The notes below the pieces were generated by a model, which saw only the letters and a program-made list of their open reading frames with translations, ran no database searches and had not been told where the DNA came from. This document shows, one piece after another, positions 702-62,000 of a DNA stretch of 64,000 nt (its first letter is position 1; every line of letters starts with the position of its first letter). Made by a program: the position numbers and the translations under genes. The stretch comes from Raillietiella orientalis (Eukaryota), in the NCBI GenBank assembly GCA_036172245.1, contig JAYWIR010000005.1:2480001-2544000 (forward strand), in the 5' to 3' direction.

Positions 702-914
702 TTGAAACCCGGGTGTGCCGGGACGTTTATTCTCACGAAGAAACCTATACAATCTGTGACTGGACCAGTAGTCCAGCCACGCCCTGGAAAGATATAGCTT
801 GCCGGGCTACCGGTGCGCAGACCGGCGCGGTCGACCTCGGCAGCAGAGGGGAGGGGGAACGAAACAAAAAGAAAACAAAAAATAAACAAAAATCAGGGAG
901 GAAGCGGGAAGGGA

Positions 915-3900
915 TCACAGTCTGCTGGGAGGGTCCGTCATCCTCTGGAGGATGCCGGCAAGCTGTTTCTGCGTGTGTGGTTCCAGATGGGGCCATCGCG
1001 TCGCCATCCTGAGGAAACAGGCGGCATACACGTTGGCATCCCTGTCGCTGGATCCTCCCGTCGACTTGCTCCATGCCACGACGATCCCGCGTAGGCAGCA
1101 CAGGGCTGCAAGCGAGGCCGCTGGAGGCAGGGCGTCACGGACGAAGAGGGGGCGCAAAGCGTCTCTGGGGTTGCCTCCGGGGATCCCCAGGGCTGCGGCA
1201 AAGCGTTCCCACAAGGGACGGAGGGCAACACAATCCACTAACAGGTGGGGGAGGTATTCCCTCTCCCCGCACCTGACACAATTAGGGTTGACACCCCCCC
1301 TCGTCCAGTGGTGTCGGCGGGCGTTGCAAGGAAGCCCCCAATGCAACACCAGCAGTGCCGACTGTTGCCACTTCATGGGGAGGGTGCGCGAGTCCATGAG
1401 CACCGGGGGCCACTCGAGATGTTCCTCAGGAACATCCAGTAGCTCTCCCCAGCGCAACAGTCCATTTGGGGTGGTCCTCGGAATCGCAGCGTTGGTGAGC
1501 TGACCCGTTCTCCAATCCCCGATCTTCTTTGCCCTGCTGGAGATCTTGACAGTAACCTCCCATTGTGCCGCGACGTCGCTGCCCAGATGTTCCCGTAGGG
1601 TAGGCAGTACCGCAGCAAGGAAGGTTCTTTGTTCCCACGCTCTCCTTCGGGGATTCTCGATGATTTCTCGGAGCGTGCGGCGGGCATGCGGCCCGAACAG
1701 AGCTATTCGCTCGTGTTGCGGGCTCTGCTCCTGAATCATCGCCCACGTGCGGACGGTTTCCTGCAACCAGGCAGGACCGTTCGCGGGGCGTACGAGGTTC
1801 CGCGCCGAGTTGTTCTTCACGAGCTTGACCGCCCTCCGAAGTTGAAGTCCGCAGTGGCAGATGGGGCTTCGGAGTGCAAAGTAGGACGAGAGTCCTGCAT
1901 TGCCGGTGGCCCGCTCGAGGAGGAGACGTGCAGGGAGGCACCAAGGGGTGCACCAATTTTCTGCCATAAAGGCAACAACTCGGAACTGGAGCTGAAGCTC
2001 CAGCCGCTCCATCGTCAGGAGGCCCAGACCACCATCCCGACGAGGAGCGCACAAGTCCGAAAGACGGACTCGGGGCCTCCCTCTGCCCCAAAGGGCGATC
2101 CTCAGGAGGTCCTTCGTCCTCTTCTTTGACTCCGCTGAGGGGGGGCAAACAAAAAGCAAGGGGCGAAGGAGGGGGGCCGCAAACGCGTTCCACGCCGCGG
2201 CCCGTTCCTGCAGGTAGAACCTGCCGTCCTGGAACGGGCCGATCGCCGCCTGAGCCTTCTGAAGGCAGCCAGACCACGCTTCCCCAGTGGAGTAGTCCCC
2301 CAACGGCACACCAAGGTACTTGAAGTACCTCACCGTGGGGATCCCCAAACGGACCCAGTCCTGCTGCCCTGCCCACGCCGCTCCGATTGGCATTACGGAC
2401 GACTTCGCCCTGTTCACCGTCAGTCCTGTTCCCCGACTCAGTAGGTCGAAGAACTCCTCGACCGCCGCAGCCGGGGTGGACATAGGCAGCAGCAGCAGAA
2501 GGTCGTCCGCGTACGCCGAAACCGCTGGCGTACCGGGACAATCGCACGGCAGGTGCGCCAGAGTCTCCCTGTACGCTCTCAGCACCAATTCGAAATAGGC
2601 GCTGGAGAGCAAGGGGCTGAGGCTGTCTCCCTGCCGTATGCCGCGTCGCACCGGTACGCCGTACACGGTGGATCCACTAAAAAAAGCATTAATAAGCGCT
2701 TCGCGCCAGAAGGAGCGCAGGTAGGCCAGCAAAGAGGCCGGGAAGCCCAAGCGTTCCAGAAGCTCCAAAAGGAGATTCGGGTCGACGCAATCGAATGCTT
2801 TATGCAAATCGACTGCGACCGCGAGGGCTCCTGTCCCCTCCCGACCATTTCGTCCCCCACCGACGGACGCACCTGAATTCCGGTTGCTTATTATGCTCCT
2901 TCCTTGTTGGAGCTCTAACCATGTGGAAGCGTGGAACAGGTTCGCCTCCATACTTCGCCCGGGAACAGCATATGTCTGTTCCGAGCTGATGAAGATGTTG
3001 GCGACCCGTCCCAGGCGCTCTGCCCACAGCTTGGCTAGCAACTTGGCGTCCGCATTCACTATTGTGATGGGACGCCAGTTGTTCATGCTCCTAAGGTCTC
3101 CTCCCTTAGGAAGGAGCCGCACCTTTGCTGAACGAAACGAGGTGGGAACGTCACCTGTTTTGCGGATCAGCAAGGTGAGTTGCTGTACCAGGGGGGTAAG
3201 CTCAGCCGCGAAAGTTTGGTAAAACTCCGCGGGCAGGCCGTCCACCCCTGGAGCCTTCCGCCTCTTGAGCTTTCCGATGGCCGAGAGGATCTCGTCCATC
3301 GTGAAAGGCTCGTCGAGACTTCTTTTCTCCTCCTCTCCGATCGCTGGTGCACCTTCCAGAAGCAGAAGTCGTGAGACGTCTCGTTCCGGACGCGCCCTGG
3401 CGTACAGGGAGGAGTAAAATTTCCTCACTATCCCGCGTTTCTGAGCGGGAACCGAGTGCTCCCGGCCCTGGTCGTCCAGCAAGCTGGCCGACCCGGATTG
3501 CCAGGCTTGCCTCTCGGCTCCCGCTCGATACTCTGCTAACCTGCGCATGTCGGAGGTTCTCGCGTAACGTCGGGTCTCAAGATAGCACCTTTCGTTACGC
3601 GGCCCCTCTTCAAATCCCGCAGGTAGGCGATGCAGGGGGAACTGGTCGCAGAACTCCTGGACCGACCGCTTGAAGCGGTCCCAGTCCTGAAGTGTCTGCA
3701 TCCTGAAGCTCCAAATAAACGCGCGGAGGTGCTCCGCCGCGTCGGAAAACTTCAGCCAGTGTCCTGGCAGACGCCACGCTGACGAGGGGGGGCCCTTGTC
3801 GCACGGACGCACTTCGAACATGATCCGACCATGGTCCGACAGCTCGGATGGTACCTTGCCGCGCCTGCCCACCCGAGAGCATAGGTGCTGATCAAGGTAC

Positions 3901-4496
3901 ACGTGATCGATGCTGCTTTCCATGGCCGTGTCCCCGGCCAACAAGTTGCGCGTGTTCATTTCTGCGCACAACTCGTTGACGCGGTCGTTCAGTGTATCCT
4001 GCGCACCTGAAAGCAGGCGCAGGTTGAAATCACCTGCGATCAGGTGCGCTTTGCGAACTCCTGCATCAGTCAGCCAATCGCGTCTTAGGGCAAGGTAGAA
4101 TTCTTTTCTTGCCTTCGCCCTCAACGCGTTGTTTCCGCTAGGAGCGTATAGGTTGGTGACGACCAGGTCGAAAGAGTCGGACCAGAAGAGAGTCAGCTGA
4201 CCGACGCGACCTGCGTCATCGAACCGAACGTCCTTTATTGCGGTATCGATGTCTGGCCGAAGCAGGAAGGCGACACCGCTTGATTTCGCGGTGCCGCAAC
4301 ACCACAACAGCCGCCCACCCGAGATCCGTTCCATCTCCCGGGCTTGATGTGCGGAGATCACGTGGATCTACTGCAGCAGCTCCAGGTCGAAGGATGACAG
4401 GGTGGCGGCCACGTCACGCCTCTTGCCGTCGTCGCTTAGCAGGTTCACGTTCCAACAGGCGATCAGAAGACGACGGCGAGAGGCGACTTCCGGCAT
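915..4496 (-). pseudogene. E1 ORF2: APE endonuclease, reverse transcriptase, C-terminal CCHC Zn finger; one nonsense codon
   Basis: ATG at 4496. Motifs CWNVN, LQ*IH (TAG at 4368-4370 replaces the catalytic Glu), NLYAP, GDFN, IDH, SDH, APGVDG, WRPIT, DLHKAFD, RQGDSLSP, YADD, KYLG, CVRC...H...C. Otherwise open for 1148 codons. Confidence 0.95.
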
Positions 4497-6152
4497 TATG
4501 GCTGGGAAAGTGGCGTCGCGGCACCTGCCGCGGGGCAGGTGTAGGAAAGGTCCATCGGTACGAGGACCATCGGAACGAGGACGGAGGCCTCTTCAGGCGC
4601 CTGGGGTACCTGTTCGGCCTCCATCCTAACCATCCCCTCCGTGTCCAAGCGTGGAATTCTCTCGGGCGACGGGTCCCGGGAGTTTCCCACGCTCATGGCA
4701 CCCTCGCTACCGGAAGCCATCTCTTCCCCTTCGTCGGGGGAGACGATCTTCCGGGGCATTGTGGACTTTCGTCCTGCCTTTTTGCGGGGTGCCGCGGAGA
4801 TGGATGCTGTGTTTCCGGCCTTCACCTCGGGGTCGGAAGTGGCCGACTCCTAAGGGGAAGCCGGACGCCTGACGGCCTTCTTGCCAGCCTTGGGGGCAAC
4901 CGGCTGCAACGAGGCAGCCAGCTCCTCCGCGGCGCACTCGAAGGCGACGTCATCGAGCGTGGGCTCGATGACGGACGCCGCCGCCTCGCTCCCCTCCTTG
5001 TTGACTTTGTCAACGGAGGGTTGAGCAGGGGCAGCAGCGAGTTCTTTAGCGCCGCATTCGTCGATGGCGGGAATCCGCTCTACAACGACGCAGCAGCTTT
5101 TAATTTTTTCGCGGCGCAGAGCGGTTTCGCTCCGTTTCGCCACGTTCTTTCCCTTCTTATGGGAGTTTTTCTTGGGATGGACCTTCTGCCACCCTGGCTC
5201 TTGACCTTCGCCCTCGACCTTTTTGGCGTTTTTCGCCGGGGTCTCGGGGCTGGCCTTCGCCTTGGTGGCGGAAGTGACCTCCTTATCAGCAGCACGAGCT
5301 GCCAGCTTTTTCCTCTTTTTAGCCACGCGCTTTCTCGCGCTTTTCGCGGACACGACGCGGACTGTGTTTTGGGGGCACACCAGACGGGTGTGCCCCGCTT
5401 GTTTGCATTGCTGGCACTGCACGCTCAGACACATCATTTTAAGGTGACCAAAGCTGCTGCAGCAGCCGCAAAACTTGGGTTTCCCCACGTACCACACGTC
5501 AACGGATTCACCGTTGACGGTGAGTTTGTGGGGAACCTCACATCCCTCGCGAACCGTCACTCGCGCTGCATCCAGGCCGCCAAGCACCCCGTCGTAATCG
5601 ACAAAAGAAGTAGGCTTTCCCCACAGCGCGTGGACAGTTGCGAATTTTTCCAATTCGTTCCGGACGGTCTCCTTTGTCATCCGGAACGTGATACTGGTCA
5701 GGTGAATGATCACCGACCGGTCTTCAGTAATTGGGAGAAGCCTCCGGCTGCCCATAATTACGGGGGTTCGCAGAAGTCTCTGCGCAAGAGTTGCCTCCCT
5801 GCAGATAACTTCCACAAATTGACCCCCGCTTTTGACGGACATAGCCAGAAGCTCCTCTTTCTGTACGCCGAGAACGCGCATCGCCTGTGAGAAGGCGCGC
5901 GCGCTCTCGGGAGAATATAGAACGCCTAAATTATATAGAAGGGGTGGGTTATACCCCTCCTCCAGGTAAGCGCGCATTTCCGCCATAGCCGCTGGCGTAG
6001 GTGCCGCAGCTACGGCGTTCCAAGCCCTGGGTAGGGCCGGGGGCGCATCCGTGCTGGCGGGAGCCTCCACTGATGCGGGAGCCCCACCTCCATCTGCTCC
6101 GGGGGCAATGAGGTCATCGCCCCGGATCCTCACCGGTGGTGGTATCAGGCAT
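4496..6152 (-). pseudogene. E1 ORF1: gag-like protein with two CX2CX4HX4C knuckles
   Basis: CGCCSSFGHLKMMC and CQQCKQAGHTRLVC. ATG at 6152 is homologous to the F ORF1 start (MPD.TT). N-terminal frameshifts and an in-frame TAG at 4850; the frame continues to TAA at 4496. Confidence 0.9.
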
Positions 6153-6234
6153 TGCTGCCTAATCCTCCACCCACACCACGCACAAGCACGAACGGAAATG
6201 GAACTCGGGAGCAACGAAAGGACACGTCCGCTCG

Positions 6235-6251
6235 ACGCTCCGGAATCTCCA
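6235..6251 (+). repeat. Right TSD of E1
   Basis: Identical to 685-701. Confidence 0.95.
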
Positions 6252-8049: not shown

Positions 8050-10665
8050 GCCTTCATCTGGTCCCAGTCTTGGAGATTCCGGAGGATGACGCCTCGCAGT
8101 ACTTAGCGGAAATGTTCCGCCTCACCTGAGATGCGCGTCCAGTCCCCGAGGATACGCCACGCTCTGTATGGTGGTCGTTTGTCGCGAGGCATAACCTCGA
8201 ATATCAACCAGAAATGGTCCGATAGCGTCCACGGAAGTTTCCCTCGTCTGCCGACCCGTGGGCACAGGTTGGCGTCAAGGAATACGTGGTCTACGCTTTG
8301 GACCATTTCCGGTAGGTCCCTCAACAAGTTGCGCGTGCGCATAGCAGCGCACAGCTCGTTGGCTGCGTCTTTTTGCCCGCAAGGCACACCTGAGAGCAGG
8401 CGGATGTTGAAATCCCCACCGATCAGATGTGCCTTGCGTACGTTTGTATCCGCCAGCCAGTCGCGCTTGAGGGTTTCGAGGAACCGGGAACGTTCCCCGT
8501 ACCCGCGTCCTCCGCTCGGAGCGTACACATTAGTCACGACAAGGTCGATAGAGTCGGACCATCTAAGGATAAGCTGGCCAACCCGACTGTCCTTGTCGAA
8601 TCGCACGTCCTTGACGAAGGAAGCGACTGCTGGCTTCATAAAAAACGCGACGCCACAGGTGTTGCGAGCGCCTCATTGCCAAAATAGACGACCCCCTGCG
8701 ATCCTTTCGATCTCCTGTGCGTTCTCCGCGGTGATCACGTGGAGTGCCAGGTCGAAGTCACGCAGGGTGTCGGCCATGTCTCGCCTGTTGCCGTCATCGC
8801 GCAGCCCGTTGACGTTCCAGCAGGCTACGCGGATCCTACGGCGACAGGCGAGCCCAGGTGTTAATCCTGGGAAAGTGGCAATGGTGCTCCCGCCTCCTTG
8901 TCGGGTGGGATGCTAGGAGGAGGAAGTGGGTCGCGCACCGCTTCTCCCTCCTCCATGGAGGCCGAGTCTTCGTCAGGGACGTGCAGAGGAAGGGGGGTTT
9001 TACCCACCTGTACTTTCTCCTCCATTAGGGTCGCCAGCTGCATGGTGTCGGGAAATGAGAGATTCCCACCCTCGCCTCCCACGCTGCCGGCTTTTCCCTC
9101 AAGTGCCAGTTCATCCTCCTCCTTCTTGATCCGTATGCGCCTCCTGGGATTCTGGGACTTGCGTCCCGTCTTCATTTGTGGCGCCTTCGTTAAGAAGGAC
9201 GCACTTCCGACATCCGGTTCGGCCTCATTTGCATCCGGAGACTTCCTCGCGGCCGGCCTTCGTAAGCCTTTCCGAGAGTTCTTCTCACGGCCTTGCAGTT
9301 CAGCCGCGAGTTCTTCCACCGCCTGCTGGAAGGCGGCCTGCTCGATCGCGTCGAGCGCGGCGCGCTGTTCCCCCTGTTTCTCCAGAGGGTTCGCCATCGA
9401 CCGTCGCGGCTTCGGCGGACGCGACGGGGGGGATTGCTTCCCCGGTGGCGGCATCGAGTACCTCCACACGCTCTAATTTTTCGGAACAAGCCCGAAGTTT
9501 TTCGCGGCACGGTATTTTGCGCTGCGTTTTTGTTTTCCCCGCGCTTCGTTCGGGACTCCTGGGCTTTCTTCTGGGCTGTACCGTCTGCCAGCCTTCGCCG
9601 TCGCCAGCGTCGTCGGGAGTGCTCTCAACAAATGTTTGCTTGGATGGCTTAGGGACTGGCATCTGGCTCTTTACAGCCTGCTTCATGGTATTCGTCTCTC
9701 CCGTTCGTTTCCCCTTTGCCTTTTTGGCAGCGGGAGGGACCGGGATTTCTCGTCTTGGGCACACCTTGCGGATGTGGCCCTTGTTTCCACATAAGTGGCA
9801 TTAGATGTTAGGGCACCGTTTTTTTAAGTGCCCTTTAGCATCGCAATGGCCACAATACTTGGGCTTTCCCACGTACCAAACATCGACTTTTTCTTCGCCG
9901 ATATTCAGTTTGTGGGGAAGCCCACCATTCTCTGGTAGGGTGACGCGGGCTACGGCCATCCCACGGAATAGTCTTCCGTACGTTCGGAAGACATTGGGTT
10001 TGGCCCAATACGCTTGCACACTACTATGCTTCGACAACTCCTCATGGACGCTGGTTTTGTCCATTTGGAGTGATACGCCAGTGAGATGGACCACGACGGA
10101 GCGGTCCTCCGTCACAGGGAAGATCCTGCGGCCGTCCACCGTGATGGGGGTGTTCAGCAGTCGCTGTGCCAGACTTGCCTCTTTGCATGTCAGCTCAACT
10201 TGCTGGCCCCCACTAAGGACGGATAGGCCTAAAAGGTCTTCTTCCCTCACGTTCAACCTTTGCAGCTCCATTTCGAAGGAGCGTGCAATTTTTTCATCAA
10301 ACACACTGCCTACCTTATTGATCAGAGACGGCTTGTAGCCGCTGTCCTTGTAGGCAGTCTGCTCCGCTACTGCATCCGGGGATGGTGCAGGAACGACGTC
10401 ACTCCAACTCCTCGCCAATGGCGAAGAAGGTCGCGAAGGGGCGGTTGCCCCTGATTCCGATGGGGCAAGTGCCCCGGATTCCGTGGGGGCGGATGCCCCC
10501 ACTTTCATTGGTGGAGGAGAACATGTCGCTTCTCCTCCTCCAACTTCCATCGCGGTGTCCTCAGGCATTTCTGCCATGGGACACCGGTGCTCCCATACAC
10601 CAGACAACCAACGAAATGCTTACCACTAACCAGTCCGTGGAGCGATTCCAAACCACCTCCGCTGC
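8050..10665 (-). mobile_element. 3'-truncated Tx1/L1-like element E2 (ORF1 and APE)
   Basis: ORF1 fragments 9801-10607 (CGHCDAKGHLKKRC), 9300-9764 and 8861-9469. APE at 8103-8860 (NVYAP, GDFN, VDH, SDH). 5' motif near 10640-10665. Confidence 0.9.
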
Positions 10666-11264: not shown

Positions 11265-12770
11265 CCCCAAATCCCGCAGCTAAGCGGTGCAGAGGGAACT
11301 GGTCGCAGAACTCCGGGACCGACCGTTTGAAGCGGTCCCAATCCTGGAGTGTCCGCAGCCTGAAGCTTCGTATGAACGTGCGGAGATGTTCCGCTGCGTC
11401 CGGGAGTTTCAGCCAGTCCCCTGGCAAACGTCACGCTGACGATGGGGGGCTCCTGTCTCGCGAAAGAATCTGGAGCACAATTGGGCGATGGTCGGAAAAC
11501 TCGGACGGTAATTTGCCGCGCATGCCCACAAGAGTGCACAGGTGCTCGTCAAGGAACACGTGATCGATGTTGTCCTCCATCCTTGGATACGCGCTCGATT
11601 TTAACGCGGCATTCCTTCGTAGCATAGCACGGAGATTTCACCTTCGGTTTCGCAACTGTCTGCGAAATTTTCGCGTTTTCCATTGTTTTATTTTTGAGGG
11701 ATTTGATTTTGTTTGGCACCAGCTTTCAGCCATCCTCGTCGATTCCCTGTTCAGGAGTCGCTTCTTGCGATTACGTGCTAGGATGTACGACTGCCTTGTT
11801 AGCTGGTAGCTAATCCTCTGCTTGTTTAGTTCTATTGTTTTCTTCAGCCTTCTCCCCCTTTTTATTTTCCAGGTTTTCTGGCTGTGTAGCGACGTTCTTA
11901 GGGCACACAACGTTAGTGTGGTCCTTTTCGCCGCATGTTCGGCACGTTGCATCCGGACATCTCTTCCGTAGATGCCCGAAAGTCATGCATTTCCCGCAAT
12001 ATTTTTGCTTCTTAACGAACCAGATATCAACGAGCTCATCGTTGACTTCCAGTTTGTGGGGAAGATAGATGTTATCGCGGAGAGTTACTCGCGTGGCCAT
12101 GCGCCCACTAAATGTGCCTCTGAAACTGAAGGCGTTGGGCTTACGTCACATCGCGTAAATCTCCGCGTATTTGTTCAGTTCTGTGAAGATAAATTCTTCG
12201 TCCATCCGCACGGTTGTACCAGTTAGGTGGATCACTATTGAGTGATCCACCGTGTGTGGTAGGAGATTACGTTTCTCGAAAGGCACGGGCGTGCAGAGCA
12301 GTTGATGCGTGAGCGCTGCATCTCTGCAGATGAGCTCCGCAAACTACCCCCCGCTACGCACCGAAAGCCACGTGATCTCCTCATCGGAAATGCCCATCCT
12401 ACGGATGGCATTTCCGAATTTGCAAGCTGTAATTGCAGAATACAAGTTGCCTACCTTATATAGAAGATGTGGATTGTAGCCCTCCTTGATGTAGGCTGAG
12501 AGTTCGGCGGCCACTTCGGGACACGCCGACGCAGCAAACTTGTTTCAAGCCCTCGCCGGAACGGCGGGGGCAGATTTGCTGATGGGGCATGCAGCCACAT
12601 CCACGGGATGGGGAGAAGTGGGTCTCACGTCTCCCGTCGCAGGTTTTGCGGCGTCTTCTGGCATTTCTGCCTTCCAACGGCCGCCTTCCAACACACACTA
12701 ACTACTACTTGGCTTCGGTTTCAGGAGCTCGCCAAAAACGCGTGCGACCACCAGTCCGCTTTAATGCAGT
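11265..12770 (-). mobile_element. Degenerate Tx1/L1-like element E3 (5' end, ORF1, late APE); internal deletion at ~11590
   Basis: Knuckles CGKCMTFGHLRKRC and CRTCGEKDHTNVVC. IDHVFLD...SDH follows directly after the ORF1 tail. Confidence 0.85.
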
Positions 12771-22469: not shown

Positions 22470-22960
22470 GAATTTGAAGATCAGCCCTGAGACCCCGGTG
22501 GAAAAAGCTAAGGTCGAGCATAACGGTCAGGAACCTGGATGGCAGATGGTCGAGTCAAAGAGGCTGAAAAAGCAAGAAAAAAGAAAAACAGATCGCAAAA
22601 CGCATCAAGAAACAGAAGCGTCGAGAACAAATAAAAAGCTGCACTGTAGTACTCGAACGCATTCCTGCGGTCGAACAGTGCGGCAAATCCGAAGTCGTCG
22701 CTACCGACTCTCAACCTTCCGCAAATGTCAGTGCAGAGGCTAACGACTCGGCGGTGGCGTCCGTCATCGAAAGCATGCTCCATGACGTCCCTTTCGAGAA
22801 AGTGGTGGAGGAGCACGCTGCAACGAACTCGAAAGGCCGCCAAAAAAGTATTAAGGTGCTCTACCTCTATTAAAAGTCGGAAATTTCCAACTCCGACGCG
22901 GAGGCGGAAAACAGTCTTCAAAATCGCAGCTGTGCGAATCTGCACCGCGAGTCAAGCTTC
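22470..22960 (+). mobile_element. ORF1 C-terminal fragment of a Tx1-like element (E4-like)
   Basis: EHNGQEPGWQMV and IKSCTVVLERIP, homologous to 34629-35072. Confidence 0.8.
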
Positions 22961-32100: not shown

Positions 32101-32290
32101 AGCACGAACCAAGATTGCTGACCCTGCGTTTAAGCTATTTACATGCCCGGATCCCCATGTGACCGATCCTGCCTTCTCTACCCTTTCCGTTGCTGCACGT
32201 AGAAAGGGAAACTCCCACCCGATCTACTCCTGTTTTGAAGGTGAAGTGGCCCCCAGCGTGCTGGAACGATGGCTCCCTTCCCATTAAGTG
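29100..32290 (+). mobile_element. Degenerate Utopia/NeSL-like (R2-group) non-LTR retrotransposon; C-terminal RLE endonuclease not seen
   Basis: N-terminal Zn fingers (CIIPSC...HLSTAH, CRKC...HPC, C...HNHTCWH), LQTLYRCNRKRTIR, FRPIAISNT, GVLQGCPLSGLLFN, LAYADD, LAPWQKLDAIK. A/C-rich composition distinct from its neighbours. Confidence 0.8.
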
Positions 32291-32364
32291 TCAGGAGATG
32301 GCGTTACTCGTTTGGCATTGAAGACTCGCATGCAGAGCGCGCGTCACCCACTGGATACGTGGGA

Positions 32365-35300
32365 GTTTCCACTGGTCATTCCGAAGCGTTTATTAAAAAA
32401 CTATCAAACCTCGTCGCCAACGGGGAGGAGATGGAGTGCCGTCGTTACTGCACCATTCCCGGCTACAGTTGTGGAGAAGACTGCCCACTGCGGCTGCAAA
32501 CTTCGCTGATCTATTAGGTAGGTAGTGTATTTGATGAAAAAATAGGTCAGCAAAGAGACCGGAAAGCCAAAGCGTTCCAGGAGCTCCAGCAGGAGCCTCT
32601 GGTCGACACTGTCTAATGCTTAATGCAAATCGAATGCGATCGCGAGGGCTCCCTTCCCTCCCAGCCATCCTGTTCCCCAACTGCGGATATTCCGGAATTC
32701 CGGTTGCCCATCCTGACCCTTTCCTGTTGGAGCGAGAACCAAGCGCTGGCAAGGAACAGGTTGGCATCCATGCTCCACCCGGGAACAGCATATGTCTGCT
32801 CCGGGCTGAATAAACTTTCCTCCAAGCGCCCCAGGCGTTCAGCCCACAACATCGCAAGCAGCTTGGCGTCCGCGTTTATCACGGTAATCGGGCGCCAGCT
32901 GCTTATCCTGCCTCTCAAGCCTTTCGATGGCCGAGATGAACTCGGCTATCGTGAAAGGCTCGTCGAAACTCCTTCTGTCCTCCTCCTCGATAGCCGGAGC
33001 GCCTTTCGGAAGCAGAAGTCGCAAGGCATTTTGTTCGCGCGTATAAGGAGGAGTAGAACATTCGCAAGATACCTTCCACCTGTGCGTAGGCCAAGTTCTC
33101 CGAGCCCTGGTGGTCCAACAAGCTGGCCGACCCGGATTGCCATGCTTGCCTCTCGGCTCCCGCACGGTATTCGGCTAGCCTGCGTACGTCAGGAGTTCGC
33201 GAGTAACGTAGAGATTGTAAATACCATCTCTCGTTACGCACGCTTTCACCAAACCCGGCTGGCAGGAGGTTCATAGAGAACTCGTCGCAAAAATCCCGGA
33301 CCGAGCGCTTGAAGCGGTCCCAGTCCTGAAGCGTCTGCAAGCTGAAACCTCGTATGAATCCGCAGAGATGCTCCACGGCTTCCGGAAGTTTCAGCCAGTC
33401 CCCTGGTAAGCGCCACGCAGATGACGGGGGACCTCTGTCGCGTGGGCGCACCTCGAGCACTAACCGGTCATGGTCCGACAGTTCCGACGGTAACTTGCCG
33501 CGCCTGCCCACGCGGAAACATAGATGCCGGTCAAGAAACACGTGATCGATGCTGTTGGCCATTTTTGGATCTTCTGTGAACAAGGTGCGCGTGTGCATCT
33601 CTGCGCACAGCTCGTTCACGCGGTCCCGAAGTGTGTCGGACGCACCTGACAGCAGGCGCAGGTTAAAGTCACCTGCGATTAGGTGCGCTTTGCGCACTCC
33701 CGCTTCGTCCAGATATTTGCTCCTCAGGGTAAGGAAGAAATCTCTCCTTGCCTTTGCCCTTAGCGCGTCGCTGCCGCTTGGGGAGTACACGTTGGTAATG
33801 ACCAGATCGATGGAGTCGGACCACCTGATGGTCATCCGGCCGACGCGACCGGCACTATCGAACCGTACGCCCTTTGTTGCGGCCTCGACAGCTGGACGAA
33901 GCAGGAACGCGACACCGCAAGATTTAACGGTGCCGCAATGCCAAGCAGCCGTCCACCGGAGATACGCTCGATGTCCGTTGCATCGTCTGCGGAGATGACG
34001 TGGATCTCCTGCAAAGCACCAGACCGAACGATGCCAGGGTGGCGGTTACGTCTCCACTCTTGCTGTCGTCGCTTAGCCCGTTGAATTTCTAACAGGCAAT
34101 TCGCAAACGGCGGCAAGAGGCGATTCCCGGCATTAAGGCTGGGAACATGGCGTTGTAGCACCTGTCAAGAGACATGTGGGAGGGATAAGCAAAGGGATCG
34201 CGGACATCGCAGGCATCTGAAGCACCTGGGGCACAGACTCCACCCTTCCCATCCCTCCGGGGTCGCAGCGTAAGGTTACCACTAGAGGCGAGTCCCTGGA
34301 GTTCCCCACGTTCTTCGCACTCTCGTTTCCCCCGATTATCTCTTCCTTTTGAATTGAAGAGATAATCCTGTGGGTCGCCTCCGTCATGAGACTAGGGTGC
34401 GTACGGGGAACAGCGATGCCGCAGCCTATGTTTTCCGCCTCCGCGATGCAGTCCGAATTCTGCGACTTTTTGGAGTTCGGACGCCTTAAGGCCTTTTTTG
34501 CGCCTTTAGGGGGACGAGGCAGGGCCGCTGCAGGGACGAAGCGAGCTCTTCTGCCGCTCACATAAAGGCGACGTCATCGAGCATGCGCTAGAAGACAGAC
34601 GCCACCACCGGGCCGATAGCCTCCGTGTTTACATTGACGAAGGGTTGAGAGTTGGCAGCGACGAGTTCGGTTTTGCCGACCACCATGTCTGTTCGACCAG
34701 AGGAATGTGCTCGATGACGATAGAGCACCGTTTGATTTTTTCGCGACGCGTCAAATTTTCGCTGCGCTTCGCGATGCTATTTGTTTTATTTTTTTCCTCG
34801 AGGTTTTTCTGCCTCTTGGACTGTACCACCTGCCATCCTGGTTCCTGGCCGTTCTGCTCAATCTTGTCCGCGTTTTCCGTCGGGCTCTCGTGGCTGACCT
34901 TCATCTGGGGCACGATAGCTTCTTCTTTAGCGGTGGCCAGCGCTCGCGCTGCTAAAATTCTTAGTTTTTTTGCCGTGCGCTTCTTCGCATTCCGTGCAGA
35001 CGCTACGCGGAATTGATTTTGCGGGCACACCGGACTTGTGTGCCCGGGTTGCTTGCATTGCTTGAACTGCAAGTAGGGGCACCTGTTTTACAGGTGACCT
35101 GAAGTGCTGCAATACCCGCAGAAATGCGGCATCCCAACATACCAAAGGTCAACGGGCTCGCTGTCGACCTCCAGCTTGTTGTGTAATGTATAGCCCCCGC
35201 GGACTGTTATCAGGGCGGCTGCCAGACTGCATGCGAACCGGCGGTAATCCGAAAACGAAGTCAGCCTCTTTCTCCATCATCATCTTCATTGCTTTTGGAC

Positions 35301-41779: not shown

Positions 41780-44761
41780 CTCTTCCCCACAAAATGGTGG
41801 TCGATGGCGAAACCGTCGACCTAAGGTATGTGGGGAAACCGAAACACTGGGGCTTCTGCAATACGTGAGGCCAACTTAAAAATAGGTGTCCCAACGTGCA
41901 GTGCCACGAATGTGGCACAATGGGTTACATGAGGGATGTGTGACCAAAAGCAGTGCGGGTTGTTTCCAAGAGAAACCTTACAAAACGCGCTCGGCTGCTG
42001 CAGGAAAGGCTGGCGGCGAAAGCTGCCGCGAAAAATGTGCCACTTGCCCCTAAGACCGAGGCCGCAAACGAGATCTAGGAGAACAACGCCGAAGTAGTCG
42101 AGAAATCCTGCCAGGAGCCTGGGTGGCAGGTTACAACCGCCAAAAAGAGCAAAAAGGAGAGAAGATTGGAGAAAACACTCGCGTACCGCCAGAAAAAACA
42201 GCAGGCAAGCAAGCAGATTAAGGAATGCAGAGTTGTCGTTTATTACCCGGTTGCGGATGACGTTTATTGATAATATATTCTGGGAACTGTGTTTCCAGGC
42301 AATGGGAACAGAAGATTGTGAGTAGATTTCCCGGAACACATGCCGGGCACACTGAGAGTTCGGAACAAGAGGGTAGGGGACAATAAATAAATAAATTAGG
42401 TGGAAGGGCGGGGAAAGGGGTAGGCAGTTTAACCATTCCTATTTTTGGAAAAGGCGGTAAATGCCGCCGATCTGCGTCCTCACTTCTGCTCCCAAGTTTC
42501 GCCACCCGGCAGCCATTTGCAGGTTGCAGACTGCGATGTCGGGGACCGATGTTGGGACTGCTCGCATCTGCAATACGTGGCGGGCCCTGAAATTGACGCG
42601 GACGCAGCAGATGATTGCGACGACCGCTCCAAGAGAAAGACCGACACGCGTATAGAAGCGGCGCATCCAATCCAGTGGGGTGTCTACAAGGTGCAGAAGC
42701 GCTTAAGACAGCCGCTGCCACAGCTCCTGGAGGGCACCGCACTCAAACAACAAATGCGGAAGCGATTCCACCGCTCCGCATTTGGCACAGTTCGAGGACG
42801 CAACTCCCCCGGAAATCAGGTGCGCTTGCTGCTTGCAGTACAAACACCAATGCACCAGCAGAAAAGCGTCCTGTTTCCACCGAAGGGGAAAGAGAGTCGC
42901 GTCCAAACACGCAGAAGGGACCACAAGTTCATCGGTGGGTACCCCGAGGAGCTAACTCCACCGGAGAAGTCCCTTGGCACGAAGGCGAGGTGTGGCAGCG
43001 TCTGGCACTTCGCAAGTCCGCTAGCCTCCCAGCAGTCGGGTTTGGCCTGCGATTTCGCAAGCGATCTCCCACCTCGCCAGCAGGTCACTGTCGTCTCGCA
43101 CCATCAGTGCACACAGTGCTTCGGCGAGTGGCGTAGCGGCTAGGCGTGTCCACTGGTCCTGGTCTTCCAGCACCCCCCCCACTGGACAGTATGAGGAAAG
43201 GTTCACGCAACGGAGTTCCAAACGGGACACATCCTGTTGCTCTGCCCAGGACGATAAGGCTTCCTGCCTACAGGCGTTGAACTTCGTCGGCCGGCAGGAG
43301 AACCACACATGCTTCCCCAGAAGCGTGGCGAGCTGCTTCAAAGGGAAGCCGGATCCTCTCTGGGCGCGCTTCGTGCGCAGATGCAACGAACGTAGTCCGT
43401 CGCCATCCGTGCAGCGCCGCAGCAGCAGCCGCGCTGGAGTACACCAGGGAGTGGTCCAGAGCTGCGCACAAAGTGCCAGCATGCGGAACTGCACTAGCAG
43501 TCCGATCCGCTCCAGCGTCAGGATGCCCAATACTGCATCCCGCCGAGGAGCCTCCAAGTCCTTCAGGCGTATCCTGGATCTCGCCCGTCCCCACAGGGCA
43601 ACAGGCGTTGCGCCCGGCGCTAAGCCGAGTAGGGAGGGGGACAAACAAAAAAGAGGGGACGGAGGAGGGGGACAACGAAAATGTTCCACACGAAGGCCCG
43701 TTCCTACAGGAGAAACCTGCCGCCTTGGAACGGGCCAAAAGCAGTCTCGGCCTTGTGAAGGCAGTCCGACCACGCTTCTGCTGGACAGAAGGCGCCCAAG
43801 GGAACGCCGAGGTACTTCAAGCACCTGCCCGTGGGATCCCCAGGCGGATCCAGTAGGACTGCCCCTCCCACGTACAGCCAAGCGGTACAACGGTTGATTT
43901 CGTCCTGTTGACGCTCAGGCCCGCTGCCCGACGAATGAGGTCGAAGAAGTCCTTGAGCCTGGACGCCGGGGTGGACATGGGCAGCAGCAGGAAAAGGTCG
44001 TCAGCATAGGCGGCCACGGCCGGTGTTTCCGGGCAGGAGCTCGGCAGATTGGCCAGCGTCAGCCTGTACGCCCTCAGCACCAACTCAAAGAAGATGCTGA
44101 AGAGCAGGGGGCTTAAGCTGTCTTCCTGCCTCATACCCCGCCGTATGGGAATGCCGTACACGTGGCGCCCGCTGAAAGAGATACAGCATAACGCGTGGCG
44201 CCAGCAGGAGCGCAAGTAGGCGATGAAGTGCGTCGGGAGGCCCAGGCGTTCCAGAAGCTCCAGAAGGAGGTCCTGGTTTACGCTGTCGAACGCTTTGCAG
44301 AGATCGACGGCTACCGCTAAGGCTCCCGGCATTCCATCATGCCTTGAACACCGCCGCTTACCTTTGGCAGCGGCGATTTTGGCTGCCTAGCTCTGCTGCG
44401 CCACGCGCTGCTGCAACTCGAACCATGTTTGCGCGAAGAAGAGATTCGCGTTCATGGACCGCCCCGGAACAGCATACGTCTGCTCCGGACTTACCAAGGA
44501 CTCCGCGATTCTCCCCAGGCGCGCGACCCATAGCTTGGAGAACAACTTGACGTCCGAATTCACCAAGGTGATCGGACGCCAGCTGCTGAGGTGGCGCAAA
44601 TCACCGCCTTTCGTCAGGAGCCGCACCTTTTCTGAGCGGAAAGAAGCGGGAACATCTCCCGTCTCAAGCATCAGCGACGGTCGCGTACGGACGTGCTTTT
44701 GCGTCGCTCCGCGGTAGATTTTCTCTTGTGTGTTTTTGTTCTGCTGTGCTTCTGTGCTGCA

Positions 44762-46167: not shown

Positions 46168-46349
46168 GTTTCCCCAAGTCCCACAAGGGGTGGGGTAAGT
46201 TTATTTTTCTATAAAAATACAATATTACATTCGCACTCTCATTCACTCAATACAAACATTTTGCACTTGGGGGTTCCTGGGTTGCACTAGAGTTCTGCTT
46301 CTCAGGGGGGAATAACAGCTGGATGGTCCCGGGCGTCGTCCTGGATCCT

Positions 46350-49820: not shown

Positions 49821-49833
49821 AAAAGGGGAAGAC

Positions 49834-51782: not shown

Positions 51783-52542
51783 TGCCTTGGCGTGTTATTG
51801 GGTATAGTTTTAAACTAGCAATAATCACGCCTCCCTTTCGTTCAGCGGCGGCGATACCGCCCGTGCGCAAGGCTCTCGCGATCACTAAAGGAGTTGCTTA
51901 CGCCTGCGTGGAGGCAGCACTTTAAGATTCATCCAAGGCAACGCCGCTTACATCCGTGGAAGCAGCGCCATCTCAGGATGGCAAAGATAACTGCGACGCG
52001 AAGGAAGACGGCTGGATGCAGGTGAGAAAGATCATTAGAAAGAAATCATCAAGGTCTTCGCAGCTCTGTGTGAAGATAAGTGGGCGAAAGAAACCCGCAA
52101 AACCTTCCCAGAAAAAGATTGCGATTATTTCCTCCTGCGCAGTCGTCCTCTCGCGGCTGGAGCGGGAAGCTGCTGCTGCGGCTAAAAGGACGAAAGTCCC
52201 AGCCGCAGTTGCAGAAAGCGCTGGGAAACAGGCAGCGAACGATTTTCCTGATTCCGGGGAACAACAGCAGCGGCTGGCAAGCCCTCGACTGTCGGATTCT
52301 GGTCCAGAGTCTGACAGAAAGAGCACACAGCGCGACAACCGCCCGAAACCGCGCAATCGCCTCCCGAAGACCCGCAAGCGCGTGGTTGCCGAGGAGGAAC
52401 TGTTGCTGGGGAGCAAAGAGGAGGAAAAGGACCTCACCTCTGAGCTACCGGCAACAAGCAGTGCGGCTTCGAATGGAGATGTCCAGTCTCCGAGATCGAC
52501 CTCTCTGTCTCGTGACCACTAGCCGGACAAGACGAGAAATCT

Positions 52543-56094: not shown

Positions 56095-59000
56095 GAAAGA
56101 TTAGGAACGTTTACTACCAAAGATCCCTGACCTCACCCTCCACTGTTTTTTTTGTTTGTTCTCTTATGTTTTCTTTATTTTGTATCCCTCTCCCTCCGTT
56201 CCTTTCTTTTAGAAGGCACCCTGCGTGCCGGTGATCTTTCTGAACTGAACTTTCTGTATGGGCGTTTCTTGTGTCTTGAAAGGATGAATTTGCCTTCAAG
56301 ATTGTGGTTTGTTTATACAAATAAACGTCCCGGCGCAACCAAGTTTAAAACGCATCAGCGAGGAAAGGCTTAGCACCAGAGGGACGAGCTCCGCCGCGAA
56401 GCACTGAAAGAACTCCGCGGGCAGGCCATTCTCCCCAGGCGCCTTATCCCTCTTCAGGCCCGCAATGGCGAAAGATACTTCTTCCGCCCTGAAGGGCCAA
56501 TCCAATCTGGCGCGTTCCTCCTCGTCGATAGCAGGGTTGCCCTTCGGAAGAAGCAGCTCGGAGAGACTGCGTTCCGTGGGTTCCTCCGCGTACAACGAGG
56601 AGTAGTAGCGTTTGACTACGCGGTGTACTTCGGCTGCAGCCGAGCATTTCTGGCCACCGTCATCGAGCAGACAAGCCGCTCCAGACTGCCAAACCTGGCG
56701 CTCAGCCCTGGCCTTGTACTCCGCCAGACGCCGGACGTACGGGCATCGGAAGAAGGTACGCGCCCACAGATAGGATCTGCTGTTCGCGGCACCCTCCCCG
56801 AAGCCGTGGAGAAACAGGTGCAAAGGGAAGCGGCAGCAGAACTCGCGGACCGATCTTTTCAGATCGTCCCAGTCCTCGAGTCCACGGATGGCGAAGCCCC
56901 GGAGGTGTTGGCGAAGATGCTCCGCTAAGCCAGTCGGCCGGCAACCTCCAGACATTTATCGGAGGCCCTTTGCCAGGCGGGAAGAGCTCAAACTCCAGTC
57001 TCGGATGATCCGAAATCGCGGACAGCAGGCGCCCTCTCCGACCTACTCGTGAGAGCAGGTGTTCATCGAGGTACGCATGGTCCGGCAATCTTTTCATCCC
57101 GGGCTCACCAGCAAGCAAGTTTTGCACGCGCACGGACGCGCATACCTCGCTCACCAGTTGCTTCTCCTCAAGCGGCATCTCTCCTCTGTTAGCAGGTGGA
57201 CGTTGAAGTCTCCTGCAAGGAGGTGCGTCACGTTAGGGCCGGAGTCAGCGAGCCAGCGGCTGCGAGGGTCACCCAGGAATGCAAGTCGCTGGGCGTAATG
57301 CCGGCCCCCGCTCGGCGCGTCGATGTTCGTAACGACCAGGTCGATCGATTCGGACCACTTGAGGACAAGTTGGCCCACACGACCTTCCTCGTCGAAACAA
57401 ACGTTCCGCACCGCCTCCGCCACCCTGCCTCGGACGAGGAACGCGACTCCCCACGTATGCGCGCAGCCTTGCTGCCAGTGTAGCGTCCCGCCCGCGCGCT
57501 CTTCCAGATCCGATGCCTGCCGTTCGGAGATGCTATGTATCTCCTGCAGCAGCACCAGATCGAAAGAGCGGAAAGCGTTGGCTACCGTCCGCCTTTTGTC
57601 AGCATCACGCAGCCCGTTGACATTCCAACAGGCCACGCTGACCCGACGAGCGGACGTGAGTCCACGCATCACTGCTGCGGTCATGACGGCGTGCTCCTCG
57701 CCCCGCCCGGCGAGAAGTCAGCTGGTAGGAGAGCGGATTGGGAAACGGAATCGCTTCCGTTCGCCACCACATCGCGCCCCGCTGAGTCCTGGGAGCCGAG
57801 GATCATCGCCTCGGTCTTCGTGCCGGAGCCGGAACCGCCTCCGGCAACAGACTCGTACTTTCGCACTTTAGCCCGGCGCGCTACCGGCTTAACCCGGGAT
57901 GCGCGCTCCATGTGTTTGCACTCGGACTCCACCTCGGAGTCCGAATGCCCAGCGCGAGACTTGCGTTTTGCCAGTCTCTTTTTGTTCCGGCAGGTGGAGG
58001 CTTGCCCTGTCCGCGCGGGGGTCGTCGCAGTCGCCGACGCAGCTTCCGGAAATTTGGCTTCCGCAGTCGCCCTCTCGCGCGAAGCGACGGGAACAGAGCA
58101 CGCAGCCTTGGTGCGTAACCAGGTACGCGCTTTCTTCGGCGTGCTTCTCTTTTGCCTCCCACCCACCTTAAGGATGGGGAATATTGAAGGGTCAACCTTC
58201 TTCTTCCCCTTTGTGAGCGTCCTGAAGACGAGAGTCCAGCCCGCGTCGGGGACGCCCTCCTGAGAGGCCGACGCCTCCCTCAATTGTTTGGCCGGAGATG
58301 CCGGCTCAGGTTTCGCGCTCGCGGCGGGAGACGGCTCCGTCCCCGTTACGCACTGCACCTGCTCCTTTGCCAATGCGGGCGAAACGGCGGTCATTGCCCT
58401 CGTCCCGCGAGGCGCTATTGCAGCCTACGCCTCTAGTGCCTTCGGCGTAAAAGACGTGATCTCCTCCGCCGTAGGAGGAGACTGCCGTTCCGAGGCAGCT
58501 CCGAGGGTACCCGCGCACGGTTTTCCGTGTGTTCCGCTGGACGAGTAAGCGGACGCGGACGGTTCAGCAGCCTTGATTGAGAGCGTGCCCGCACTCTTAG
58601 GCTGCTTCGAAGGGGGTGATTTGCCCTCAGGGCGACGTGGCATCTTTCCCGTCTGCGCGGCTGTCTAAGATGGTGGCTTCCCTAAAGCAACCGCACCCTT
58701 TTTCGCGGGACCGCCACTCGGAGATGCCCCGCCCTTCGCGCCCGAATTCTCACGTGGCACAACTAAGGACCTTTTCGGCGCGGAAGGGGTCGATTGTTGG
58801 CGGCTTTTCGCCTGCCGCTTTCTCTTCAGCTCGGCGCACTCTTTGATGGAGTGGCCGAGCTGTTTACAATAGCGGCAGTTGCGTGAGGGGCACGTCCACG
58901 GAAGGTGGTCCTCTGCACCGCAAACGCCGCAAGCCGGTCGCTGACCTGCAAATTTAAGGTGGACGATCGCATCGCCCACCTGCAAGTGCGGAGGCATTTG

Positions 59001-62000
59001 CCTCCTATCCGCCTTGGTGACACGCGCCATGGCAAGTCCGCTGTGGAGAGATGCAATCCTTTTGATCGGATTGTGTGCTCTCCACAGCGCGTGCACCGTG
59101 GCGAATGCACTTAGTGCAGCGACGAGCACGCGATCGGGCGTGTTCACCTAGACGGCGGATAATCGGACCACCAACGACTGGTCCATGGCCGACCGGACGA
59201 CCTCCTTCCCGCGGATATTTAGCGGGGTGCCGAGGAGGCGCTGGACTAGGGATGCCTCTTTGCAGTGCACCTCCCAGTGTCCAAGCGCGTTAACCGGCAT
59301 GACGGCCAGGAGGTCGTCCTATCGGACCCCAACGCGCAAAAGCTCATTCCACAAATTTCCTCCGACCCCGTGGGAGATAGCAAAACTCACCGAATAGCAG
59401 AGCGCAGGCTTGTTGCCATGGGCTGCATATGCCTGCAGCTCCGCTTCGTCGGGCAGTGCTCCGTTGGCTGCCGCCACCTTGACGACGGCTGCGAAGCTTC
59501 TCGCCGGTGGCGAGACACAACAATCAGAGGCGGAACGGACATCTGGAGTAGACTCTCCACTTCCAGTAGCAGCCCATACATCCATCTTTTGCTGCAGGGG
59601 CTCCGTGGACATCCCAGTGGACGCACTCGGGCACATCACACACAAGAAGACGGAAAGGAATCACGTTTGAGGAGCAACAAAGAACACGTCCGAGCCGAAG
59701 TTGTGGAGCGTATTCCCTACCTCTGCGAAAAAGAACTCGCCGCTACTGACGACAATTCTCCTGTTGACTCTGTCAAGAGCGAGGGGAGCGAGCCGGCGGC
59801 GGCGTCCGTCATCGGCACCACCATCGATGACGTAGCCTTCGCGTAAGCCACGGAGGAGCTGGCAGCCTCGCTGCAGCCAGAACCCTCCAAGGCTGGCAAG
59901 AAGGCCGCAAGGCGTCCGGCCTCCCCTCTGCAGACACCCACTTCCGACCCCGAGGTGCAGGCTGGAAGCGCAGCCTCCGTTTCCACGGCACCCCGCAAGA
60001 AGCCTGGACGTAAGTCCACAAAGCCGAGGAAGCTCATCTCCCCCGTCGAAGGGGAAGAGATGGCTTTCGCAAGCGAGGGTGCCATAGGCGTGGGAAACTC
60101 TCGGGACCCGTCGCCCAAGAGACTCTTACGCGCAGACACGAAAGGGATGGAGGGGTGGAGGCCGAACAGGTGCCTCAGGTGCCTGAGAAGGCCGAAAACC
60201 CCATGCACATCCCTCCCGCACGCAAGAGGTGGGCTCCCCCACACCTTAATCTTCCCAGCAGTAATGCCGGGAATCTCCTCCCGGCGTCGTCTGCGCATCG
60301 CCTTTTGGAACGTGAACGGCATGACAGACGCCGGCAGGACACGAGACATGGCCGCCCTTCTGGAGTCCTACGACCTTGCGCTGTTGCAGGTGATCCAGGT
60401 GATCTCTGCAGAACAAGCGCAAGAGATCGAACAAATCTACGGTAGGCGGCTATGGTACAGGTGTGGAAGACCGAAAAGTTGCGGTGTCGTTTACCTGCTT
60501 AGGGCAGCCGTCCAGGCCGCGGCTTGAGGCGTGCAGTTTGACGATCACGGTCGTGTCGGTCAGCTGAGTCTCAGGGGGTCCGACTCGATCGATCTGATCG
60601 TCACGAACGTGTACGCACCGAGCAGCGTGGACCTGATGAACAGGAGGGCGAGGAAAGAGATTTTCCTTGCCCTCCGGCGCGACAGGCTGACCGAAGCAGC
60701 CGTGCGGAATGCTTATCTGGTTGCAGGCGATTATAAAGTTCGCATCGACCACGTGTTTCTTGACCAACACCCGTGCCCTCGCGTTGGCAGGCGCTGCAAA
60801 TTACAGTGCGAGCTGTACGACCATCGCCCGATAGACCTCGAGATCTATCCGCGCGACAGGAGCCCCCCCTCGTTATCGTGGCGTCTCCAAGGGGACTTCC
60901 TGAAGCACCAGGACGCGGCGGAACATCTTCGCACGTTCCCACGGAGTTTCAGGCTGCGGACACTTCAGGATTGGGACCGCTTCAAGCGGTCGGTCCAGGA
61001 GTTCTGCGACCAGTTAACTCTGCACCGCCTACCTACGGGTTTTGTAACCGGGGTTCGTAACGAACGAGCCTACCTGCAGGTCTGTTCTTACGCCAGGTCC
61101 CCCGACATCCGCAGGCTGGCGTAATACAAAGCGGGAGCCGAGGAACAATCCTGGCAGTGCGGATCGTTTAGCTAGCTGGACGATCAGGGCAAGGAGCACT
61201 CGGCACCCGCTAAATCCGCGGCCTGCTGCGGAGTTACTACTCCTCCCTGTATGCCAGGCCACTTCGGAGAGGAATGTCTCACGACTTTTGTTTTCGGAAG
61301 GCGCTCCACTGATCGGGGAGGAGGAGAGAATGTCCCTCGACGAGCCTTTCACGATGGACGAGATCGTTTCGGCCATCGAAAAGCTCAAGAGGCGTAAGGC
61401 TCCTGGGGAGGACGGTCTGCCCGCGGAGTTTTAGCAAACTTTCGCGGCTGAGCTTAACCCCCTGGTACAGCAACTCACTTTGCTGACACGCGAGTAAGGT
61501 GACGTTCACGCCTCGTTTCGTTCAACAAAGCTGCGGCTCCACCCTAAGGGAGGAGATCTAAGGAGCATGAACAGCTGGTGTCCCATCACAATAGTGAATG
61601 CGGACGCCATGTTCCTGGCTAAGGTTTGGGCAGAGCGTCTGGGACGGGTTGCCAACATCTTCGTAAGCCCGAAATTGACATATGCTGTTCCCGGGCGAAG
61701 CATCGAGGCGAACCTGTTCCACGCTTCCACCTGGCTAGAGCTCCAACAGAAAAGGAGCTTGGTGCGCAGCGGGAATTCCGGTGCGTGCGCCGGCAAGGGG
61801 TTGGATGGTCGGGTTGGGGAAAGAGCCCTTGCGGTCGCAATCGACTTGTGCAAAGCATTTGATTGCGTCGACCAGAATCTCCTTTTGGAGCTTCTGGAAC
61901 GCTTGGGCTTCTCGGCCTCATTAGTAACCTATCTGCGCTCCTGCGGGCGCGACGCGCTCATCAACGTTACTTTCAGCGGGCAGACCGTGCACGGCGTGCA

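Follow-up and report, generated by a model that had tools for sequence, protein, structure and literature searches.

Chromoviruses carry chromodomain integrases with which they target heterochromatin. The integrase of Ty5 has a targeting domain that binds Sir4 and steers insertion into silent chromatin (PMC5911963). The same source documents one ORF1 protein (ORF1p) of a non-long-terminal-repeat (non-LTR) element that contacts a chromatin-bound insertion-site factor, that of TRE5-A from Dictyostelium, which binds TFIIIB (PMC5911963). Besides sequence-specific endonucleases and the TRE5-A/TFIIIB case, how non-LTR elements choose safe insertion sites is largely open. Here, we examine a stretch of 64,000 nucleotides from Raillietiella orientalis (contig JAYWIR010000005.1, positions 2,480,001 to 2,544,000; hereafter the window, in whose own coordinates all positions are given), in which copies of non-LTR retrotransposons are densely nested, and describe in one of its families of long interspersed nuclear elements (LINEs) a conserved nine-residue block of ORF1p that putatively mimics the HP1 box of the co-repressor KAP1/TRIM28. 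An earlier reading of this DNA, made from the letters alone (the sequence-only reading), had proposed the site as a tether that binds the HP1 chromoshadow domain.

In human KAP1, the HP1 box comprises residues R483, K484, P486, R487, V488, S489, L490, E491 and R492; the chromoshadow groove buries its Pro, Val and Leu, the substitution V488E abolishes binding, and the peptide lies as the middle strand between two chromoshadow C-terminal tails (PMC12126490). The pentamer LCVKI is the ligand of Drosophila HP2 (PMC11833287). Colmenares et al. (2025, PMC12526061) name LxVxL, LxVxI and CxVxL as known variants of chromoshadow ligands, so that the earlier claim about CxVxL agrees with the literature, and report that the bare pentamer is uninformative, as it matches over half of the fly proteome. 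Counting the central residue as position 0, the Drosophila ligands labelled HP1a Access Codes (HACs) have a hydrophobic residue at −2, an invariant V or I at 0 and an aliphatic residue at +2; among 173 sequences, position +4 is basic with two exceptions, and three to six basic residues lie between −4 and +4. Hydrophobic residues are favoured at −7, −5, −1, +5 and +7, acidic residues are missing at −6, −3, −1, +1 and +5 and aromatic ones at −4 and +6, and the sites are located in disordered regions and conserved among homologs (PMC12526061).

The best preserved copy of the family, E1, extends over 702..6234 on the minus strand (5533 bp), with an ORF1 of 378 aa at 4850..5986(−) and an ORF2 of 1139 aa at 915-4334(−). 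Its ORF1p consists of two RRM-like folds, two CCHC knuckles of the pattern C-x2-C-x4-H-x4-C and a tail. An AlphaFold model folds residues 1-205 confidently into an alpha/beta region (pLDDT >90), and the nearest protein-atlas clusters belong to the zf-CCHC and RBD_ZCCHC3 families; Pfam returned no match to ORF1 at E values up to 0.1. Between the CCHC knuckles and the start of ORF2 stretches a linker of nearly 300 residues, and the block is found about one third into it. It is not near the C-terminus, because E1 ORF1 is shortened by an in-frame TAG (4850-4852(−)) where other copies read through, and the outside proteins P0003 and P0041 (see below) likewise continue in frame. The tail had been described as basic, which holds upstream of the block (29 Lys and Arg versus 8 Asp and Glu in residues 206-297) and not downstream of it, where the balance turns slightly acidic (8 versus 12 in residues 305-378).

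In E1, the block reads CCVVVERIP (ORF1 residues 298-306; 5069..5095(−)), its first seven residues, CCVVVER at 5075-5095, being the site from which the proposal started. A six-frame translation of the window contains 16 matches to the expression C.[VI].[LIV].[RH], of which five stand at the homologous site of ORF1 tails. Besides that of E1, these are CRVKIERVS in E3 (11585..11611(−); CRVKIER at 11591-11611), CTVVLERIP in a tail fragment (22640..22666(+); CTVVLER at 22640-22660), CSIVIEHIP in E4 (34701..34727(−); CSIVIEH at 34707-34727) and CAVVLSRLE in G, a member of a distant subfamily (52136..52162(+); CAVVLSR at 52136-52156). A looser instance in E2, CSEKLERVE (9462..9488(−); CSEKLER at 9468-9488), has Glu in place of the central Val, and E8, of the same distant subfamily as G, has a weak one, CSVPVAS (58080..58100(−)). 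The instance in copy F is not cleanly readable, as the inverted element E8 splits F exactly within the motif codons: the 5′ half, CRVVV (42226..42240(+)), is directly followed by the 3′ end of E8, and VVERIP (59700..59717(+)) resumes directly after the E8 5′ end, which a match of the E1 5′ untranslated region (UTR) on the minus strand locates at about 59696. We considered the 59.6-kb tail piece as a separate, 5′-truncated copy and rejected this; the sequence upstream of VVERIP matches the family 5′ UTR, on the other strand. All eight instances listed by the sequence-only reading are thus present where it had put them, and the splitting of F by E8 is confirmed. Its motif of seven residues proves too short, the conserved unit being the nine-residue block C-x-[VI]-x-aliphatic-E-R-aliphatic-P. 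G also carries the pentamer LCVKI at 52064-52078(+), upstream of its main motif and in this single copy only; the five letters are those of the HP1a ligand of Drosophila HP2, position +4 is Gly, which fails the HAC rule, and the pentamer may be there by chance.

Conservation was scored in an alignment of 14 tail rows, made up of nine window pieces, four proteins from outside the window and one doubtful distant subfamily; the two parts of F form separate rows, and the row for 59610-59843 partly reads the end of E8 instead of tail. Cys occupies −2 in 12 of the 14 rows. V or I stands at 0 in 11 rows, the exceptions being E2 (with Glu), the row that reads the end of E8 and the doubtful distant row. 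Position +2 is aliphatic in 13 rows, +3 is Glu in 11 of 13, +4 is Arg in 11 of 14 and His in one more, +5 is aliphatic in 12 and +6 is Pro in nine. Between these, −1 and +1 vary, with mean BLOSUM pair scores of 0.34 and 0.05, versus 6.12, 1.92 and 1.98 at −2, 0 and +2. Averaged over nine columns, within the part of the tail that is covered by at least eight rows, the block scores 2.34 and is second only to an island of the form E-x-G-W-x-x-V (3.2); all other windows of this width reach at most 1.26, and the tail mean is 0.77. Tail alignment and motif scoring, which had been proposed as a check, hence speak for conservation of the block. The same alignment contradicts the earlier description of the tail as otherwise unalignable: the GW island outscores the motif, and more islands follow downstream.

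The block extends to relatives outside the window. A HMMER pass through 1.84 billion representative proteins gave 239 matches at E values up to 0.001, only four of them at 1e-10 or better. The close family outside the window consists of five proteins, P0001-P0004 and P0041, each a single sequence on a metagenome contig of 1.1-2.1 kb. Four of the five reach into the tail, and three of these four carry the motif (CAVVVERVP in P0001, CSVALERVE in P0003 and CTVQLERIP in P0041, proteins with 41-43% identity to E1); in P0002 the block reads ATVQLERIP, with Ala replacing Cys. A word-indexed search found one protein with E1 ORF1 as the query and none with the tail alignment, a query that also missed known members and was probably swamped by low-complexity words. 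Two metagenome DNA scans confirmed no relatives, and a PDB sequence search with a 38-residue block gave no match at E values up to 10. The conserved residues are written in differing codons (GTC, GTA, GTT and ATC for V/I; GAG and GAA for E; CGG, CGC and CGT for R; CCC and CCT for P), and selection therefore acted at the protein level. The pentamer C-x-[VI]-x-aliphatic occurs 8 times among 137 tails of more distant ORF1 proteins, versus 7.4 in shuffled tails. Since there is no enrichment, the block is particular to this LINE family.

Structural prediction gives the block a flexible setting. In the E1 model (67 rows), residues 298-304 of the motif form coil directly after a basic helix of moderate confidence (residues 282-297; 5096..5143(−); pLDDT about 67-72). 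The pLDDT is about 67 in residues 281-290, 72 in 291-300, which takes in the helix end together with motif residues one to three, 52 in 301-310 and <50 in 309-341. In the model of P0003 (39 rows), the motif (residues 235-241) falls inside a stretch with pLDDT below 50 (235-252). The GW island stands upstream of the motif at no fixed distance, with 27 to 45 residues between them in the ten rows compared. The two AlphaFold monomer models place the motif within no folded domain, and they support, at the motif, the disorder that the sequence-only reading had claimed for the tail. Models and spacing together suggest that the block behaves as a short linear motif and that the linker around it is disordered.

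Judged by its residues, the block agrees with what is demanded of an HP1 chromoshadow ligand better than the earlier reading knew, bar the count of basic residues. The HAC core, hydrophobic-x-[VI]-x-aliphatic, is present in 11 of 14 rows, a basic +4 (R or H) in 12 and the preferred hydrophobic residue at +5, here aliphatic, also in 12; disorder and conservation are likewise found, in the two AlphaFold models and the conservation profile. E1 has no acidic residue at −6, −1, +1 or +5. At +5 and +6, the broken or doubtful rows do not all conform to the signature; F has Tyr and E8 has Glu at +5, and the half of F that follows the end of E8 has Glu at −6. From 0 to +4 the block follows the x-V-x-L-E-R of KAP1, and the two also agree in having a basic residue at −4. 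As a background we used 134 tails of distant ORF1 proteins (22,542 residues), of which 77 contain the five-residue core and only 12, with 16 sites between them, the core together with a basic +4; the heptad of core plus E-R occurs in none of the 134. The KAP1-like match is therefore not trivial. We consider it plausible, at somewhat less than an even chance, that the block binds the HP1 chromoshadow dimer as a putative mimic of the HP1 box.

The alternation of conserved and free positions is that of a peptide added as a beta-strand with one buried face, and the sequence of the block fits the ligand of the HP1 chromoshadow-domain dimer. In the mechanism that we rate most likely, ORF1p, together with its ribonucleoprotein particle (RNP), would dock on HP1 dimers through the block, and such putative docking would serve either insertion into heterochromatin or competition with KAP1-type silencers for HP1. 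The self-nesting that the sequence-only reading had sought to account for is real. E1 was inserted within the ORF2 of another copy of its own family and is flanked by a perfect direct repeat of 17/17 bp (685-701 and 6235-6251), and E8 interrupts F. We regard as unlikely, taken whole, the scenario in which this LINE family evolved a KAP1-like HP1 box in ORF1p, docks its RNP on HP1-coated chromatin methylated at histone H3 lysine 9 (H3K9me) and so lands new copies in silenced older ones; in a bolder variant, the box may additionally compete with KAP1-type silencers for HP1.

Several points weigh against HP1 docking. The range of three to six basic residues in −4 to +4 is not reached, at least three being present in only two of the 14 rows (four in E3, three in E2); nine rows have two, and three have one or none. 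Glu stands at −3 in three of the 14 rows (F, E3 and P0003) and in none of the 173 Drosophila HACs. At +3 the block has a conserved Glu where Drosophila HACs favour a basic residue, although KAP1 likewise has Glu. Cys is the most conserved residue of the block, and if hydrophobicity alone mattered, L, V or P should have replaced it in some copies; no single-base change leads from TGC or TGT to L, V, I or P, which may explain why the exchange is missing. The HAC rules are those of Drosophila HP1a and may not be those of the host, and the likeness to an HP1 box is a post hoc observation, made with many motif classes to choose from. All five homologs from outside the window lie on short metagenome contigs and may derive from the same or a close species, and passive pile-up in a repeat-rich, probably silent region explains the nesting equally well, a viable account because two or three other retroelement families share the same 64 kb.

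Conservation, predicted disorder and an alternating pattern suit any ligand that acts by beta-augmentation, and the block could be a short linear motif that forms a strand on some other partner, be it a host factor different from HP1 (an import, RNA-granule or chromatin protein, for instance) or the ORF2p of the element itself, its HP1 likeness being coincidental. The Pro at +6 (nine of 14 rows) and the strict Cys, neither of which the published HP1 rules demand, point in this direction, as does a basic-residue count under the HAC range. Yet all strongly conserved positions other than Pro +6 coincide with those that matter in HP1 ligands, the x-V-x-aliphatic-E-R heptad is missing from all 134 background tails, and among the alternative motif classes checked none fits, so that we hold a different partner to be possible, if doubtful. 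The function might instead be centred on the Cys, through S-acylation or another modification that associates ORF1p with membranes or lipids. Acylation sites have a Cys near a basic run and an aliphatic stretch. The Cys column is the best conserved (12 of 14 rows, score 6.12), with a strongly basic flank upstream and aliphatic residues downstream, and for esterase-type ORF1 proteins lipids have been proposed to play a part in retrotransposition (PMC3905857). P0002, however, has Ala at this position and keeps the rest of the block, and neither E-R-aliphatic-P nor the V at 0 would be explained, which makes a Cys-centred function improbable in our view.

LINE ORF1 proteins are multimers, as is established for L1, and the block, instead of serving as a ligand for a host protein, might contribute a strand to an ORF1p assembly, folded or oligomeric, with an intermolecular sheet or zipper arising only in the multimer or on RNA. 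The moderate AlphaFold confidence at residues 282-300 (67-72) is of a kind often seen in conditionally folding segments; against this, the block is not packed on the folded domains in either monomer model, and the linker length varies on both sides. A self-association prediction for two 167-residue E1 tails scored 0.00 and 0.00, was run without controls and counts neither way. To such an assembly we assign the same low probability as to the Cys-centred function. A SUMO-interacting motif (SIM) is more improbable still: the aliphatic run followed by Glu (VVVE, VVLE, IVIE) resembles one, whereas the four-residue core of the consensus (three aliphatic residues including positions 1 and 4) occurs in none of the 14 rows, a looser, ELM-like pattern in one, and the upstream flank is basic where SIM flanks are usually acidic or phosphorylated. 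Conservation at the nucleic-acid level, as an RNA structure or binding site inside the ORF1 coding region, is scarcely credible, given that third codon positions vary freely and the amino acids are kept.

Around the putative HP1 box, the tail holds other conserved islands. In E1, the best conserved one reads E-P-G-W-Q-K-V (5180..5200(−)). Across the family it takes the form acidic-x-G-W-x-x-V followed by basic residues, with G and W invariant in all ten rows that cover it (E1 and nine others). The pattern [ED]xGW occurs in 8 of the 137 ORF1 tails at large, versus 1.45 in shuffles, and five of these eight are outside the close family; it may be a wider ORF1 motif. The third conserved island is a predicted acidic amphipathic helix, DDVAFECAAEELAASLQ (4907..4957(−); residues 346-359, pLDDT about 80). 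Downstream of the motif, to about 4700(−), this helix, of the form DDxAFExAxEEL, and the islands KKAVRRPA and PRKxGRKSxxPRK are present in E1, the 22.6-kb and 59.8-kb pieces, E2, P0003 and P0041; in E1, the last sits beyond the stop codon, and we take this basic stretch to resemble nucleic-acid-binding hooks. Three other readings of the tail were dropped: a second zinc site using a downstream Cys, as C-x12-C-G occurs only in E1 and the 22.6-kb fragment; a B56 site of the LxxIxE type in IPAIDE, which occurs only in E1 and P0001; and a classical bipartite nuclear localization signal, for which there was no fit.

The rest of E1 is that of an APE-type LINE with a type-I ORF1p, combining endonuclease and reverse transcriptase (RT) in ORF2 with RNA-binding folds and CCHC knuckles in ORF1. 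Pfam matches in ORF2 are RVT_1 (5.4e-21) and Exo_endo_phos, the APE-type endonuclease (1.1e-06), with a weak zf-RVT match in the C-terminus (0.0064) that lies below its cutoff; L1/Tx1-like is a putative clade label. The element has an AATAAA signal and then ends without a poly-A tail. Like ORF1, ORF2 has an in-frame TAG, at about 4360-4362(−), early in the endonuclease domain. Both frames are broken, yet the target duplication is perfect; E1 may go back to a source that was defective already, or may have arisen by copying in trans. Read through its TAG, the ORF1 frame ends at the TAA at 4496-4498, overlapping an ATG of the ORF2 frame (TAATG; 4494-4498(−)). Overlaps of the TAATG type are the layout of elements that couple translation of ORF2 to termination of ORF1. 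Three copies, E1, G and E8, have their ORF2 shifted to the −1 frame with respect to ORF1 (offset 2 mod 3), with the junctions near 52516-52522(+) in G and at 57684-57717(−) in E8; G has no ATG ahead of the endonuclease domain.

Searching the window by tblastn with E1 ORF1 and ORF2 yielded about 12 more copies or fragments of the family, at 27-71% amino-acid identity, and at least two other LINE families. Of the other retroelements at 24805-26700(+), 29600-32300(+) and 47247-50919(−), two are LINEs that each encode an endonuclease and an RT, one of the two having an ORF1 with three knuckles, and the third has an RT-like frame; in the frames of these families that were read, the HP1-like motif was not seen. 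Later inserts stretch the inverted E8 to about 17 kb (42241-59696): 44636-46198(+) is a copy of a distant subfamily, 47247-50919(−) belongs to another LINE family, and element G occupies about 51900-56349(+). An AT-richer, element-poor stretch holds a coiled-coil-rich open frame of 359 aa at 15752-16831(−); the atlas clusters closest to it consist of coiled-coil proteins from chordates, at a low recognition score (1798), and we treat this as no more than a lead on the host.

The literature search, which largely did not cover subscription journals, found no report, in the text accessible to it, of a LINE ORF1 interaction with a chromoshadow domain or through PxVxL. If the docking and targeting proposed here are real, no heterochromatin tether would have been described before in a non-LTR element, nor one on ORF1p rather than on an integrase; LINEs would join Ty5 and the chromoviruses under the tethering model, and a mobile element would be mimicking the HP1 box of the very class of co-repressor that silences retroelements. 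A nine-residue HP1-type docking motif in ORF1p would be a directly testable handle. If binding fails, what is left is a well-defined conserved motif of one LINE family, of modest interest.

Compared with described proteins, ORF1p shares with type-I LINE ORF1 proteins (RRM and CCHC) and ZCCHC3-like proteins, in its folded N-terminal part, two RRM-like units and two C-x2-C-x4-H-x4-C knuckles, and it differs from those ORF1 proteins in the CxVx-aliphatic pentamer, which is not enriched in their 137 tails (8 versus 7.4, as above). With the HP1 box of KAP1/TRIM28, of the PxVxL class, the block has in common the order hydrophobic-x-V-x-aliphatic-E-R, a basic residue at −4 and a disordered setting; they differ in that −2 is Cys in the LINE and Pro in KAP1, and in the carrier, a retrotransposon ORF1p versus a host co-repressor, and HP1 binding by the LINE protein is our inference. 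Drosophila HACs and the HP2 pentamer LCVKI resemble it in three alternating hydrophobic residues, a central V or I, a basic +4, a hydrophobic +5, disorder and conservation, by the same published accounts; in contrast to HACs, with their three to six basic residues in −4 to +4, most LINE copies have two, and they have Glu at +3 and, in three rows, an acidic residue at −3. As a retroelement tether, the proposed box would share with Ty5 and chromoviruses the use of a short module, in a retroelement protein, for binding a protein or mark of heterochromatin and so steering insertion into silent chromatin. Those are LTR elements with an integrase, whereas this is a non-LTR element with ORF1p and target-primed reverse transcription, and its proposed partner is HP1. 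TRE5-A is closest in kind, and differs in its partner and in its target, tRNA genes; in its description no short motif is defined. If true, the proposed tether of this LINE family would combine two known kinds of module, HP1-box ligands and retroelement tethers.

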